Shown here: in pieces, positions 2,772 through 60,666 of the stretch
How the letters are laid out: each line of letters opens with the position of its first letter
How positions within the stretch are numbered: position 1 is the first letter of the stretch
Assembly: GCF_057098645.1 (NCBI RefSeq)
Contig: NZ_CM169472.1
Strand: one strand, 5' to 3'
Length of the DNA stretch: 64,000 bases
Notes under the pieces: model-generated
Seen by the model: the letters and a program-made list of their open reading frames with translations, nothing else
Told to the model about the DNA's origin: nothing
Database searches by the model: none
Position numbers and translations under genes: made by a program

Positions 2772-3319
2772 TGGGTTTACCACCGCTTAGCAAAATTCCT
2801 TTCATTTTACGTCCGCAGGCGTGGCTGCATCGTCGCCATTACGGCGAGGTGCTAAGCCCCATTCGCTGGTGGGGGCGGATCCCGTTTATCTTTTATCTGG
2901 TGTCGATGTTTGTTGGCTGGATGGAGCGCAAACGCTCACCGCTCGATCCGGTAGTACGATCGCTTGTCAGCGCGCGCATTGCGCAAATGTGCCTGTGTGA
3001 GTTTTGTGTGGATATCACCAGTATGAAAGTCGCCGAGCGCACCGGCAGCAGCGATAAACTGCTGGCAGTGGCTGACTGGCGACAAAGCCCGCTCTTCAGC
3101 GATGAAGAACGGCTGGCGCTGGAGTACGCCGAAGCCGCAAGCGTCACGCCGCCAACGGTCGATGATGCCCTGCGCACCCGACTGGCTGCGCATTTTGACG
3201 CCCAGGCGCTCACCGAACTGACGGCATTGATCGGCCTGCAAAATCTGTCGGCTCGTTTTAATTCTGCCATGGACATTCCCGCTCAGGGGCTGTGCCGTAT
3301 TCCGGAAAAACGTTCTTAA
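2771..3319 (+). CDS. ynjA: Carboxymuconolactone decarboxylase / AhpD-like family protein
   Basis: 182-aa ORF; translationally coupled to ydjZ; synteny. Confidence 0.8.
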   Translation: MGLPPLSKIPFILRPQAWLHRRHYGEVLSPIRWWGRIPFIFYLVSMFVGWMERKRSPLDPVVRSLVSARIAQMCLCEFCVDITSMKVAERTGSSDKLLAVADWRQSPLFSDEERLALEYAEAASVTPPTVDDALRTRLAAHFDAQALTELTALIGLQNLSARFNSAMDIPAQGLCRIPEKRS

Positions 3320-32830: not shown

Positions 32831-33144
32831 TCACACCATATCCAGCGCAGTTTTTCCTTTTGGTGCCGGATACGCTTTGTCCAGCATGGCTAATTCCGCT
32901 GACGAAAGTTCGACCTCAAGCACAGCCGCATTCTGTTGGACATGGGCAATCGTGGCCGCTTTTGGAATCGCCATCACACCCTGATGGCTGATTACCCACG
33001 CCAACAATACTTGTGCCGCGCTGATATTGTGAGCATGTGCAATTTCGTTGACTACCGCGTTTTTTAACAGTCCATTGCGCAACCGCCCGGCCTGGGCTAA
33101 CGGACTGTAAGCCATCACCGGCATCTGCTGTTGCTGGCACCAGG
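32831..33144 (-). pseudogene. yeaE: yeaE (aldo-keto reductase) 3' fragment, separated from the 5' part by an IS21-family insertion
   Basis: Minus-strand reading frame ...WCQQQQMPVMAYSPLAQAG... ending at stop 32831-32833; native frame reaches the insertion junction at 33144. Confidence 0.8.
33138..33144. repeat. Target-site duplication CACCAGG (left copy)
   Basis: Identical 7-mer directly flanks both ends of the IS (33138-33144 and 35784-35790). Confidence 0.8.
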
Positions 33145-33346
33145 TGCAAAATGGCATCTGAATCGATCGCAGTTTGGCATTCGAATCGATCATGATTTGG
33201 CATCCATCTCCGATCACAGTTTGGCATCACAATCGATCACGATTTGGCATGCTTCCGATCATTGATTGGCATCCTGCCAGTCACTCCGGGAATTAACTCT
33301 TTTCACCACAGTCTCCATTGCCGTGTTTAAACCAGTGGAGACGTCA

Positions 33347-34912
33347 ATGTCCAGAAAGAGAAAATCCAGGAGCACTATGGAAACCTGTTTTAAGATCCTT
33401 CAGCTCAAGTTCGACAAGAAGCTGACTAACCGTTGTATCGGACTGACGTTACACATCAGCGCCTCAACCGTTTTTGAGGTTCTTGCCCGCTTCAAAGCCT
33501 CTTCTCTGTCATGGCCATTACCTGCTGATATATCCCATGACACGCTGGAGAAACTCATTTTTCCGCCCAAAGACACCTTTGCATCAGAGCTTGTAATGCC
33601 TGACATGTTGTACTTCGATACGGAAATGAGAAAACCAGGTGTGACGCGGCAACTGTTGTGGATGGAATACAAGGCACAGGCGGGTAACAAAGCGATGGGA
33701 TACTCGCACTTCTGCCGTTGCTACCGGGAGTGGAAAAAAACGCGACGTCTCTCCATGCGCCAGGAGCATCGTGCCGGCGAAAAGCTTTTTATCGACTTCT
33801 GTGGTCCTACGGTTCCTGTTATTAATCCGGACACCGGTGAGATACGCCGCGTGGCAATCTTCGTGGCCGTAATGGGGGCGTCCAACTATACCTACGTTGA
33901 AGCGTGCGAAGGTCAGGACATGATGTCATGGTTAAATGCCCACAGCCGTTGCCTGACCTTCCTGGGCGGCGTACCGAAGCTGCTCATCCCCGATAACCTC
34001 AGAAGCGCAGTGAAAAAGGCCGATCGATATGAGCCTGTCATCAACGACAGTTATCAGGCACTGGCTGAGCACTATGGCACGGTTATCATCCCGGCCCGAC
34101 CACGCAAACCTAAAGATAAACCAAAAGCAGAAAACGGCGTCCTCATCGTTGAACGATGGCTTCTTGCCCGCATCCGTAATGAAACCTTCCACACGCTCAG
34201 GGCGCTGAATGCGCGCCTTAGGGAGTTACTGACAGACATGAATAACCGGCCAATGAAGGGGTACGGCAATCAAACCCGTGCAGAACGCTTCCGCATACTG
34301 GATGCGCCAGCACTCTCTCCGCTGCCTCTGGCACCTTATGAATACACGGAATACAAAGCTGTGAAGGTTGGCCCTGACTACCACGTTGAATATGCCCGTC
34401 ACTGGTACTCCGTTCCACACGAACTGGTCGGTCAGCGTCTGTCACTGAAGGCGGGGCAGTCGGTGGTACAGCTCTGGCACAAGGGGCAGTGTGTGGCGCA
34501 ACATCCGCGCAGCACACATGAATATAAACACACAACCAATCCGCTTCACATGCCAGAGCGCCACCGGCAGCACGGGACATGGACACCGGAACGCCTGATC
34601 GAGCAGGGAAAACGTACGGGCCCGTCCACAGGCCGGGTGGTTGAATCCATGCTGAAGGCAAAACCCCATCCGGAACTGGCTTATCGTGCAGTTCTGGGGC
34701 TGCTGGCACTTCAGAAAAAATACGGCCCGGAACGGCTGGAAAAGGCCTGTTACGTTGCCCTGCACTATAACGCCCCTGACAGACGCTTTATCGACAATCT
34801 GCTGCGTCACCATCGGGAGAACCTGGAGCTTCCATTATCCCGCCAGGGCGAACAACATCCGGCATATGCTTCAGAGCATGAAAACCTGCGTGGTCCGGGC
34901 TACTACCACTGA
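33347..34912 (+). CDS. istA: IS21-family transposase IstA
   Basis: 521 aa from ATG 33347 preceded by GGAGA; N-terminal HTH region and DDE integrase core; organisation typical of IS21 family. Confidence 0.8.
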   Translation: MSRKRKSRSTMETCFKILQLKFDKKLTNRCIGLTLHISASTVFEVLARFKASSLSWPLPADISHDTLEKLIFPPKDTFASELVMPDMLYFDTEMRKPGVTRQLLWMEYKAQAGNKAMGYSHFCRCYREWKKTRRLSMRQEHRAGEKLFIDFCGPTVPVINPDTGEIRRVAIFVAVMGASNYTYVEACEGQDMMSWLNAHSRCLTFLGGVPKLLIPDNLRSAVKKADRYEPVINDSYQALAEHYGTVIIPARPRKPKDKPKAENGVLIVERWLLARIRNETFHTLRALNARLRELLTDMNNRPMKGYGNQTRAERFRILDAPALSPLPLAPYEYTEYKAVKVGPDYHVEYARHWYSVPHELVGQRLSLKAGQSVVQLWHKGQCVAQHPRSTHEYKHTTNPLHMPERHRQHGTWTPERLIEQGKRTGPSTGRVVESMLKAKPHPELAYRAVLGLLALQKKYGPERLEKACYVALHYNAPDRRFIDNLLRHHRENLELPLSRQGEQHPAYASEHENLRGPGYYH

Positions 34913-34928
34913 CAGAAGGAACAACAGT

Positions 34929-35684
34929 ATGAGTGATAACCTGTTAAACAAACTGACCCAACTGAAACTCCCGGCGATGGCCGGGAGCCTGATACGGCAG
35001 CGGGAAACGCCTCAGACCTACGACGAACTGTCGTTCGAGGAAAGGCTGACGCTGCTGGTTGATGACGAGCTTCTGAGCAGGGAAAACAGCCGTGTGGCAC
35101 GGTTGAGAAAAAATGCCGGCCTGAAATACCAGGCAACACCGGAAGGGCTGCGCTATCCGGCCTCAAGAGGTCTGCGGGCTGAACAGATGAGAGAACTGCT
35201 GAACGGCCACTACATAACCCACAGGAAAAACCTGCTGATAACCGGTCCGACAGGATGTGGCAAGAGCTGGATAGCCAATGCGCTGGGCGAACAGGCATGT
35301 CGACAGAAACACAGCGTCCGGTACTGTAGAACCGGGCGATTACTGGAACAACTGGCTCAGGGACGTGTTGATGGCAGCTGGCTGAAATATCTGAAACAGT
35401 TGCAAAAAATACAGGTTCTAATCCTGGACGATCTGGGGCTGGAACAGTTAAGTAACGCCCAGTGTAATGACCTTCTGGAGCTCATAGAGGATCGTTACGG
35501 ACAAAGCAGCACGATAGTGGTAAGCCAGTTCCCGGTAGATAAATGGCATGGTCTGATGGAGAACCCAACAACAGCAGATGCCATCCTGGACAGACTGGTA
35601 CATAACTCACACCGAGTGGTCCTTCAGGGAGAGTCACTGAGGAAAAATCCCCCGGTAGTGGAAAGCAGCGAAAAAACGCGTTAA
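34929..35684 (+). CDS. istB: IS21-family helper ATPase IstB
   Basis: 251 aa; Walker A GPTGCGKS and Walker B ILDDLG; 16 nt after istA with GAAGGA RBS. Confidence 0.85.
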   Translation: MSDNLLNKLTQLKLPAMAGSLIRQRETPQTYDELSFEERLTLLVDDELLSRENSRVARLRKNAGLKYQATPEGLRYPASRGLRAEQMRELLNGHYITHRKNLLITGPTGCGKSWIANALGEQACRQKHSVRYCRTGRLLEQLAQGRVDGSWLKYLKQLQKIQVLILDDLGLEQLSNAQCNDLLELIEDRYGQSSTIVVSQFPVDKWHGLMENPTTADAILDRLVHNSHRVVLQGESLRKNPPVVESSEKTR

Positions 35685-35783
35685 AAAGCGGTAGAAAAAG
35701 TTAAGTTCCCGGTTGATCGAATGGATGCGAATCGCTGATCGGACTTCGATGCCAATCCGTGATCGAATAGAGCGGAATACGCA

Positions 35784-35790
35784 CACCAGG
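35784..35790. repeat. Target-site duplication CACCAGG (right copy)
   Basis: Identical to 33138-33144. Confidence 0.8.
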
Positions 35791-36331
35791 GGAGTAGATC
35801 GTACTCAATCCCTCGTGAACCGAGATGGTAAAGCACCTGATTAGTGGCACACTGATTTCCCCCCGGCAGCTGCCAGAGTTCCTGCATATCAGCATAATCA
35901 AGGTTAGAAACGCCCCAGCGGCGGATTTTTCCCTGGGCGATCAATTTTTCCATCGCTGCGACAGTCTCTTCAAAAGCGAAACGGCCAGACCAGTGTAATA
36001 AGTAGAGATCGAGATAATCAGTATTGAGACGGCGTAAACTGGCTTCGCATGCATTTATCGCTTTTTGCCCGCCAGCATTCCACGGATAGACTTTAGAGAC
36101 GAGAAAGACGTTATCGCGCAGACCGGTTAATGCTTCCCCAACCACCTTTTCGGCACCGCCATCGGCATACATTTCGGCGGTATCAATGAGGGTTAAACCG
36201 AGCTCAATGCCCGCGCGTAGTGCAGCAACTTCTGTTTTGCGCTGACTGGCATCTTCGCCCATATACCATGTTCCCTGCCCTATGGCTGGCAGTGAGACAT
36301 CGCCACTAAATTGAATCATTTTTTGTTGCAT
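35784..36331 (-). pseudogene. yeaE: yeaE 5' fragment (N-terminal ~183 codons), fused to IS-derived codons
   Basis: Minus-strand ORF starting MQQKMIQFSGDVSLPAIGQGTWYMG...; authentic sequence runs to ...YDLLPWC at the IS junction, then reads into IS DNA until the stop at 35681. Confidence 0.8.
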
Positions 36332-58911: not shown

Positions 58912-58980
58912 ATTGTATTCTCTTTAGTGGGCGTCAAAAAAAAAGCCGGATTAACCGGCGTCTGACGACTGACTTAACGC

Positions 58981-60666
58981 TCAGGCTTTATTGTCCACTT
59001 TGCCGCGCGCTTCGTCACGTAATTCTCGTCGCAAAATTTTTCCGACGTTAGATTTCGGTAACTCATCACGAAACTCCACCAGCTTCGGTACTTTGTAGCC
59101 CGTGAGCTGACGGCGGCAAAAGGTCACCAGTGACTCTTCGGTAAGCGATGGATCTTTTTTCACTACGAAGATTTTCACCGCTTCACCACTGGAGCCGGAA
59201 GGTACGCCAACAGCCGCGACTTCCTGTACGCCAGGATGCTGCATGACGACATCTTCAATCTCGTTGGGATAGACGTTAAAACCGGAAACCAGAATCATGT
59301 CTTTTTTACGATCGACAATGCGCAGGAACCCTTCTTCATCCATCACCGCGATGTCGCCGGTGTGTAACCAGCCATTTTTGATGATCTCATCTGTAGCATC
59401 CGGACGCTGCCAGTAACCCAGCATCACCTGCGGTCCTTTGACACAAAGCTCACCCGGTTGACCCGGTGGTACTTCATTATCATCATCATCCACCAGTTTG
59501 GCTTCCGTCGACGGCACCGGCAAACCGATGCTACCACTATGATAATCAATATCATATGGGTTAACGCTGACCAGCGGCGCACACTCGGTAAGGCCATAGC
59601 CTTCCAGCAGATACTGTCCTGTCAGTTTCACCCAACGCTCTGCCACCACTTGCTGCACTGGCATCCCACCGCCTGCGGAAAGATGCAGACTGGAGAAATC
59701 CAGCTGCTGGAACTCTTTATTGTTCAGCAACGCATTGAACAAGGTGTTAACGCCAGTGATAGCGGTAAACGGATATTTCGCTAACTCTTTTACCAACCCT
59801 GGAATATCACGCGGGTTAGTGATAAGCAGGTTCTGCCCACCCAGTTCGATAAACAGCAGGCAGTTAATGGTCAGGGCAAAAATGTGATACAGCGGCAGTG
59901 CCGTTACTACCAGTTCTTTACCTGGATGCAGCAACGGCCCATAGGTAGCGTTGACCTGTTCCAGGTTCGCCAGCATATTGCGGTGAGTCAGCATCGCGCC
60001 TTTCGCCACACCTGTGGTGCCGCCGGTGTATTGCAGGAAGGCTAAATCTTCCGGCACCAGTTCGGGTTTGACGTACTGCATCCGGTAGCCGTTATGCAGT
60101 GCGCTACGAAATGAAATGGCATCTGGCAGATGGTATTTCGGCACCAAACGCTTGATGTATTTAACAACGAAATTGACTACCGTGCCTTTTGCCGTAGATA
60201 GCTGATCGCCCATACGGGTCAGAATTACGTGCTGAACGGCGGTTTTATCAACTACCTTTTCCAGAGTGTGGGCAAAGTTAGACACGATAACAATCGCCGA
60301 TGCGCCACTATCGTTAAGCTGATGCTCAAGCTCGCGCGGGGTATACAACGGGTTGACGTTTACGACAATCATCCCGGCGCGCAAAATGCCAAACAGCGCC
60401 ACTGGATATTGCAATAAGTTAGGCATCATCAGCGCAACGCGATCGCCTTTCTTCAGCCCCAACCCTTGTTGCAAATAAGCGGCAAACGCGCGACTGCGCT
60501 CTTCCAGCTTGCGGAAGGTCATCACCTCCCCCATATTCACAAACGCAGGCTGATCGGCGTAGCGCGCGACCGACTGCTCAAACATATCTACCAGAGATTG
60601 ATAACGGTCAGGGTTGATCTCCGTCGGAACGTCCGCGGGATAACGGTTAAGCCAAACCTTCTTCAA
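58981..60666 (-). CDS. fadD: Long-chain-fatty-acid--CoA ligase
   Basis: ORF 58981-60732; likely TTG start giving 561 aa ([13 protein letters not shown]...); AMP-binding motif [12 protein letters not shown]. Confidence 0.9.

Follow-up and report, generated by a model that had tools for sequence, protein, structure and literature searches.

What has split yeaE into two fragments in this strain, is the intervening DNA a working mobile element, and how did it come to lie there? The window (the whole 64,000-nucleotide stretch that was analysed) holds the following features at this locus:

32831-33144, reverse strand: 3′ fragment of yeaE, from codon 181 to the stop, severed from its promoter and start codon
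33138-33144, no strand: left copy of the target-site duplication, CACCAGG, single copy in uninterrupted genomes
33145-35783, forward strand: complete IS21-family insertion sequence of 2,639 bp with TG...CA tips, assigned here as an ISSso4 isoform
33145-33273, forward strand: left end, with the tip TGCAAAATGGCAT and five direct repeats of CGATCAnnnTTTGGCAT, predicted IstA binding sites
33347-34912, forward strand: istA, DDE transposase, 521 aa from the ATG at 33347 or 511 aa from the ATG at 33377
34929-35684, forward strand: istB, AAA+ helper ATPase, 251 aa
35690-35783, reverse strand: right end, with inverted units at 35749-35764 and 35725-35740, a degenerate third unit, and the tip ...GGAATACGCA
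35784-35790, no strand: right copy of the target-site duplication, CACCAGG
35784-36331, reverse strand: 5′ fragment of yeaE, codons 1-183, now reading into the element

Disruption of yeaE

The insertion lies at codons 181-183 of yeaE, with the element oriented opposite to the gene, and CACCAGG is found as a perfect repeat at both junctions, as an earlier note on this DNA had reported; the duplication is exactly 7 bp, because the adjacent bases do not extend the repeat, and two junctions fixed in advance would share a 7-mer by chance with a probability of about 6e-5. When the element and one copy of the repeat were removed in silico, translation gave a continuous YeaE of 284 amino acids (...YDLLPWCQQQQ...), and the uninterrupted 284-codon gene that the earlier note had described is thereby recovered. 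Of the 5,426 complete E. coli genomes, 5,423 have the site unbroken, in some of them at 100% identity. In the closest genomes, the matches of the two 25-kb flanks overlap by exactly 7 bp; in strain Z1323HEC0422, for instance, the left flank matches 480802-505748 and the right flank 455892-480808. The gene name follows the RefSeq annotation of the empty site (“methylglyoxal reductase YeaE”); no YeaE-specific NCBIfam model scored above its cut-off.

In its present state the 5′ part of yeaE continues into 33 foreign codons of the element, forming a chimeric ORF of 216 aa (35681-36331). The truncated protein, which ends its native sequence after about residue 183 of 284, would be inactive because the C-terminal third of the fold is lost. 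The activity of YeaE and its redundancy with other reductases have been described (PMC5297802); since several other E. coli reductases act on methylglyoxal, the loss of YeaE alone is probably buffered and its phenotype probably mild. We suggest that yeaE in the source strain be annotated as a pseudogene, with an element of the ISSso4 type as the cause of the disruption; beyond this correction of the annotation, the insertion has little significance.

Identity and coding capacity of the element

The element starts with TGCA and ends with CGCA, and full-length copies that are 100% identical to it were found in many E. coli chromosomes and plasmids with different flanks. Since the same 2,639 bp recur end to end elsewhere, the boundaries of the element are fixed independently of the window. 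Single genomes can carry identical copies at various sites, with as many as 34 places in one genome, which points indirectly to transposition by IstA and IstB; copies on plasmids come from Escherichia, Salmonella, Shigella, and Klebsiella; many of the best-matching E. coli records are from poultry. An exact search with the left 36 nt of the element gave 0 matches in a collection with one genome per species, whose representatives evidently do not carry the exact left-end sequence.

Under the ISfinder naming convention, the same element or an isoform shares at least about 95% full-length DNA identity with the reference. A Shigella sonnei plasmid copy, both genes of which are labelled as ISSso4 family in RefSeq, is 96.3% identical to the element over 2,639 bp, and we therefore regard the element as a probable isoform of ISSso4. 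RefSeq assigns the identical copies to the ISSso4 family, as an IS21-like element; the IstA variant found here is labelled there only “IS21 family transposase,” with “ISSso4 family” kept for the S. sonnei IstA variant. Plasmid pCT carries a copy with 99.7% identity to the element, and this copy has been named ISSso4 (PMC6361801), so that the name is based on the RefSeq labels and this one paper. The kind of element is already known, and the insertion is an ordinary event.

The element carries two genes, istA followed by istB, both on the forward strand and separated by 16 nt, and family assignment of their products was made with NCBIfam equivalog cut-offs. IstA scored 284.6 bits against NF033546 (transpos_IS21; cut-off 160) and contains the Pfam domains rve and Mu-transpos_C_2. 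Its predicted catalytic triad is D140, D206, and E252 in the 511-aa numbering (codons 33794-96, 33992-94, and 34130-32), which align with D124, D187, and E233 of IS5376 IstA (PDB 8B4H/8Q4D), the catalytic residues reported for that protein (PMC10122671). The earlier note had described a 521-aa DDE transposase: the DDE assignment and the ORF from the ATG at 33347 both stand, and the choice of start calls for adjustment, as RefSeq places the start in identical copies ten codons downstream, at 33377. Both ATGs are preceded by a Shine-Dalgarno sequence. IstB scored 257.8 bits against NF038214 (cut-off 200) and matched the Pfam family IstB_IS21 (PF01695, 1.2e-60). The Walker A and B motifs claimed for this 251-aa protein were located as GPTGCGKS (residues 106-113) and VLILDD (residues 163-168), and align to the IS5376 IstB structures 8Q3W and 5BQ5; the exact protein occurs in 12,539 blocks of the public collection. 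A scan for promoters and terminators in and around the element returned none above the shuffle expectation.

Both ends carry a repeat unit of about 20 nt, CGATCAnnnTTTGGCAT, with five units on the left at a spacing of 22-24 bp and two to three inverted units on the right. The left units are located at 33162-81, 33185-204, 33209-28, 33232-51, and 33254-73 (spacing 23, 24, 23, and 22 bp). The earlier note had counted five copies of TTTGGCAT at this end, which is one too many: exact copies start at 33173, 33196, 33220, and 33243, and the fifth unit has ATTGGCAT instead; the tip has AATGGCAT. The units of the right end lie at the same distances from the tip as those of the left end (about 35 and 59 nt), and the ends are nearly invariant among copies that differ by 3.7% overall. 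End repeats in the IS21 family are 23 bp apart (PMC10122671), and we infer that the 23-bp-phased repeats on both sides are binding sites for IstA. Every repeat site contains a GATC (Dam) sequence, with five in the left 135 bp and three in the right 100 bp. Two diverged relatives (77-88% identity) proved to be decayed relics and could not be used for testing whether the GATCs in the repeats are conserved. Partial and decayed relatives are numerous in E. coli plasmids and chromosomes.

Taken one by one, the sequence marks of the IS21 family are all present: an IstA of the DDE, IS21 type and an AAA+ IstB with Walker A and B motifs, the gene order istA-istB, TG...CA tips with several subterminal sites about 23 bp apart, and a short target duplication, here of 7 bp. 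The family assignment made in the earlier note is therefore upheld, by the NCBIfam scores of both proteins and by the phasing of the subterminal repeats.

Origin and age of the insertion

Judged from these sequence comparisons, we consider it very probable that an intact, presumably transposition-competent copy of an ISSso4 isoform entered yeaE through the usual DDE mechanism. From what has been published on IS21 and IS5376, this would have proceeded as follows: a tetramer of IstA would bind the 23-bp-phased repeats at both ends and pair the ends, and would expose a 3′-OH at the terminal CA; ATP-bound decamers of IstB would bend a target DNA chosen with little preference for sequence, and would recruit IstA; and staggered strand transfer followed by gap repair would leave a short duplication, 7 bp long at codons 181-183 of yeaE. 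Target duplications of 5 bp have been reported for many members of the IS21 family (PMC11208146). We compared 50 independent insertion sites of the same element with the same ends, and found duplications of 4-7 bp with a mode of 6 bp (4 bp at 3 of these unique sites, 5 bp at 7, 6 bp at 23, and 7 bp at 12), so 7 bp ranks second among the lengths that this element produces.

The insertion looks recent and strain-specific, because none of the 5,426 complete E. coli genomes shares it at the exact position; likewise, the public gene collection has no entry for the chimeric 216-aa ORF. Over 25 kb on each side, the flanks match those of genomes with an empty site at 100.0% identity. The earlier description of a clean and probably recent transposition agrees with the perfect duplication, the identical copies elsewhere, the identity of the flanks, and the absence of the insertion from other genomes; the event itself is undatable. 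The insertion may serve as a strain-specific marker in an O145:H28-like backbone.

Among other explanations, a non-random insertion, in which yeaE is a preferred target of the element or its loss is selected, fares best and is still improbable. In its favour, strain CDF6 has an independent insertion of the same element in yeaE, at codons 10-12 and in the same orientation, with a 7-bp duplication (ACATCGC), and in strain MS 200-1 a copy is found in a different gene but inside the same 11-mer, CTGGCACCAGG. However, given roughly 500-1,500 independent insertions in the genomes searched (an estimate), a second hit in this 855-bp gene is expected with a chance of 8-23%, and the MS 200-1 site had been selected for its similarity to the yeaE flank. 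Strings such as TGGCA or CTGGCACC, resembling the core of the element's own repeat, occur in several flanks and were considered as a target motif; we dropped it, since the sites with these strings had been picked by BLAST for similarity to the yeaE flank, and TGGCA occurs 5 times on 45 unbiased sites versus 3.5 expected (P = 0.27). No AT/GC profile was seen around the 45 unbiased sites, and IS21 is reported to have no strong target specificity (PMC11208146).

Local avoidance of GATC was also considered as a property of the insertion sites (2 versus about 13 expected within 40 nt, from core-genome frequencies). We do not claim it, since GATC is scarce in the flanks as far as 1.2 kb from the sites (1.4-1.7 per kb, versus 3.8 in the window) and depletion within 60 nt of the sites is marginal against the local background (P ~0.03). 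The GATC-poor flanks reflect insertion or survival in accessory DNA; at the site in yeaE itself, a GATC lies 7 nt from the duplication.

It is very unlikely that the element is an old, inactive relic that was fixed long ago in the lineage. The abundance of decayed relatives would fit such a history, but the copy in yeaE is complete and matches those of unrelated strains at 100% identity, with both ORFs and all catalytic motifs intact, and the perfect duplication, the identical flanks, and the missing counterparts in complete genomes all speak against long residence. Less likely again is an assembly artefact, in which the assembler misplaced a repeat copy into yeaE. The junction is in no complete E. 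coli genome and the chimeric ORF is not on record, in keeping with an artefact; yet an artefact would not duplicate 7 bp perfectly where every relative has the target only once, at a length that the element commonly produces, nor would its junctions fall precisely on the TG and CA tips that serve at 50 other sites. Finally, IS21-family elements are known to act on tandem copies (PMC10122671), but that this one is an arm of a composite transposon or of a tandem (IS)2 mobilising neighbouring genes is scarcely credible, since it is the sole copy in the window, with no partial copies, and is bordered on its two sides by yeaD and mipA, the core genes expected there, in an arrangement collinear with that of reference genomes.

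Wider biology and comparison with known systems

The variant of the element found in yeaE is clearly active, is expanding in some E. coli, and rides conjugative plasmids across the Enterobacteriaceae. Its copies can cause genes to be lost or segments to be inverted; two inversions of this kind were observed in other genomes. One identical transposase-helper pair gives rise to duplications of 4, 5, 6, or 7 bp, which is looser than the fixed 5-bp spacing in the solved IS5376 transpososome. This loose duplication length, the five presumed IstA sites, the GATCs, and the two istA starts together could mean that methylation or replication gates transposition and that strand transfer is flexible in its geometry; we regard this as a doubtful suggestion, which is not specific to the copy in yeaE and may in part be on record in ISfinder already. 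Searching the literature for regulation of IstA by Dam brought up only irrelevant papers.

The prototype IS21, from plasmid R68.45, has the istA-istB operon, multiple end repeats, and TG...CA tips, as does the element; IS21 is about 2.1 kb long, with a shorter IstA. A further difference is that no tandem copy is present here. Two in-frame starts of istA a few codons apart are common to both; in IS21 they yield a transposase and a cointegrase, the latter without 8 residues (PMC10122671). The two istA ATGs of the element, each with its Shine-Dalgarno sequence, are 10 codons apart and resemble this pair.

IS5376 of Geobacillus stearothermophilus, the member of the family with solved structures (PDB 8B4H, 8Q4D, 8Q3W, and 5BQ5), resembles the element in the DDE core of IstA, where the triads align, and in its beta-barrel; it has an IstB that aligns over its whole length including the Walker motifs, and the same terminal CA and 23-bp spacing of the end repeats. 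The sequence relationship is distant (E ~1e-14 and ~1e-24). IS5376 IstA has about 400 aa versus 511-521 aa in the element, which leaves the latter with a C-terminal extension of about 110 aa that has no Pfam match. IS5376 also differs in having two left-end repeats rather than five, and a reported duplication of 5 bp (PMC11208146) rather than 4-7 bp.

The closest of the known systems is ISSso4 of S. sonnei, where the element was first named. It is 2,638 bp long versus 2,639 bp here, with the same gene order and nearly identical end sequences, and the proteins share 499 of 511 residues (IstA) and 244 of 250 residues (IstB), or 98% each. The S. sonnei copy is about 3.7% divergent in DNA, and the variant found in yeaE is the one that has spread through E. 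coli and enterobacterial plasmids.

The insertion in yeaE and its empty site

By direct reading and by script, the element measures 2,639 bp, starts with TGCAAAATGG and ends with GGAATACGCA, and is bracketed by a duplication of exactly 7 bp, the bases adjoining the two heptamers being different:

33138-33144 and 35784-35790: copies of the target duplication CACCAGG
33145-35783: insertion sequence
33347 (first ATG), + strand: istA, a frame of 548 codons, 521 aa from this ATG (ORF list)
34929-35684, + strand: istB, 251 aa (ORF list)

In-silico removal of the element and one heptamer yielded an unbroken 284-codon ORF on the minus strand (product MQQKMIQF...YDLLPWCQQQQ...ALDMV), with the insertion point at codons 181-183; thus both the CACCAGG-flanked element and the restoration of yeaE by its excision, as claimed in the earlier note, are borne out. 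The 5′ fragment of yeaE now continues into the element for 33 codons, which makes a 216-aa chimeric ORF (35681-36331) with no record in the public gene collection. We infer that the truncated YeaE, with 183 native residues of 284, is inactive; its loss is probably buffered by other reductases, since E. coli has several aldo-keto reductases that act on glyoxal and methylglyoxal, YeaE among them (PMC5297802). The element has no other copy in the window, complete or partial.

Joined together, the two flanks (300 bp from each side) form one unbroken stretch in 5,423 of the 5,426 complete E. coli genomes; in O145:H28 strains the match is at 100% identity and the site is annotated as "methylglyoxal reductase YeaE". 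Each 25-kb flank is 100.0% identical to empty-site genomes; for example, the flanks fall at 480802-505748 and 455892-480808 in strain Z1323HEC0422, an overlap of exactly seven bases. The exact window junction was found in no complete genome of the E. coli set searched: the insertion is unique among these genomes and probably recent, and the earlier reading of a probably recent transposition was correct.

Some O145:H28 genomes (12E115, RM12581, RM13514, and FWSEC0002; flank hits H96-H99) match window positions 8200-33144 in two pieces, spanning ∼26.4 kb versus 24.9 kb, with ∼1.45 kb extra, at some point in this region, that is absent from the window. The sole Rfam match in the window is the sroD sRNA (58937-59022, minus strand, 108.5 bits), and the window has no tRNA genes, neither being unusual in this region of the E. 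coli chromosome.

Identity, genes, and ends of the element

Full-length copies of the 2,639 bp, 100% identical, are present in many complete chromosomes and plasmids of E. coli, with as many as 34 places in a single genome, and the element also resides on Escherichia, Salmonella, Shigella, and Klebsiella plasmids. In identical copies, the RefSeq label of istB is "IS21-like element ISSso4 family helper ATPase". Both genes are ISSso4-labelled in the 2,638-bp copy on a S. sonnei virulence-type plasmid (NZ_CP046285), which is 96.3% identical in DNA and 98% in both proteins to the window element, with nearly invariant ends; the copy on plasmid pCT, 99.7% identical, has been named ISSso4 (PMC6361801). 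Because of these labels, identities, and the pCT name, we call the element, on sequence grounds, a probable ISSso4 isoform; ISSso4 appears routinely in lists of S. sonnei and E. coli insertion sequences. Several plasmids of E. coli and Klebsiella contain solo right- or left-tip fragments of 33-34 bp (100% identity) adjacent to virulence genes (K88 fimbriae, eltAB), for example at L025:2501-2533 (ETEC K88 plasmid p14ODK88) and L026:2501-2534 (LT plasmid of F5656C1); these fragments look like remnants of truncated copies.

On NCBIfam NF033546, "IS21 family transposase", IstA reaches 284.6 bits against a cut-off of 160, and it has the Pfam domains rve and Mu-transpos_C_2; IstB reaches 257.8 bits on NF038214, "IS21-like element helper ATPase IstB", whose cut-off is 200, matches PF01695 at 1.2e-60, and has the Walker A and B motifs GPTGCGKS and VLILDD. 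The istA gene has two in-frame ATGs 10 codons apart (33347 and 33377; region 33332-33379), each preceded by a Shine-Dalgarno sequence (GGAGA, AGGAG); the copies from S. sonnei and E. albertii retain both. The earlier note was right about both genes and the 251-aa istB, while its 521-aa istA has an alternative start at 33377.

The left end has CGATCAnnnTTTGGCAT in five direct copies, spaced by 23, 24, 23, and 22 bp; the note had counted five repeats, but exact TTTGGCAT occurs four times and the fifth unit reads ATTGGCAT. Two good and one degenerate inverted copies lie at the right end, at distances from the tip equal to those at the left; past the first three bases (TGC) the two tips share little similarity. 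Every subterminal repeat unit (33145-33279 and 35684-35783) contains a Dam site (GATC), with five in the left 135 bp and three in the right 100 bp (30-37 per kb, versus 2.1 in the element interior and 3.8 in the window).

Other insertion sites and target preference

We surveyed 50 unique insertion sites of the same element in other genomes (loci L001-L059), all 50 with identical tips. Duplications are 4 bp at three sites, 5 bp at seven, 6 bp at 23, and 7 bp at 12; a 7-bp duplication thus lies within the usual range of this element. Five sites lack a duplication; at four of these the flanks have been exchanged between two copies within one genome (L006/L009 in GCA_027278235.1; L016/L017 in APEC E956, CP087294). 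Since 6-bp duplications (CACAGG/GTCATT and CGTAAA/TCTGGT) match across these copies, the exchanged flanks indicate that recombination between inverted IS copies has inverted segments of ∼413 kb and ∼20 kb. At L018 the duplication is absent and no partner copy was found.

Most surveyed sites lie in prophage, island, plasmid, or other mobile-element genes (45 sites), and a core-gene insertion such as that in yeaE is the less common case. Among the genomes examined yeaE was struck twice: E. coli strain CDF6 (NZ_CP158429; L001:4307-6959) has a separate insertion in codons 10-12, in the same orientation, with a 7-bp duplication ACATCGC (window 36297-36303). We do not claim a hotspot, because with the number of insertions surveyed we estimate a chance of 8-23% for a second hit. 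GATC is low around 45 insertion sites out to 1.2 kb (1.4-1.7 per kb versus 3.8 in the window); an apparent depletion of GATC at the targets reflects this kb-scale scarcity in accessory DNA. A target motif resembling the IS repeat core was rejected on an unbiased site set. In E. coli MS 200-1, a copy in a fimbrial chaperone gene (L029:∼3000-3240) lies inside the window-target 11-mer CTGGCACCAGG, offset a few bases from the window position; its duplication is only 4 bp (ACCA). The shared 11-mer may be coincidental, the site having come from a similarity-biased selection.

Comparison with IS21 and IS5376

The element is a known insertion sequence, and the event an ordinary gene-disrupting transposition. 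The earlier note was correct in both observation and interpretation, the repeat count and the alternative istA start aside. Its intact genes and motifs, ends, and duplication, and identical copies at different sites in single genomes, imply recent activity, as judged from sequence. By analogy with IS21 and IS5376 (PMC11208146; PMC10122671), an IstA tetramer would pair both ends via the phased repeats and expose the 3′ CA; ATP-bound IstB decamers, showing little sequence preference, would bend the target DNA and would both bring in and activate IstA; and staggered strand transfer followed by repair would produce the target duplication.

End repeats with 23-bp spacing are a trait of the IS21 family, built into the IstA-DNA structure (PMC10122671). 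IstA aligns to the IS5376 IstA structures 8B4H and 8Q4D, with D140, D206, and E252 (511-aa numbering) on the catalytic residues D124, D187, and E233 (PMC10122671), and for IstB the alignment to IS5376 IstB (8Q3W, 5BQ5) covers the entire protein. The two istA starts resemble, by analogy, the transposase/cointegrase pair of IS21 (PMC10122671). IstA is ∼110 aa longer at the C-terminus than the 400-aa IS5376 IstA (34570-34909; residues ∼400-511), a tail with no Pfam match, and the 4-7 bp stagger, with near-identical proteins, is looser than the 5 bp of the solved IS5376 transpososome.
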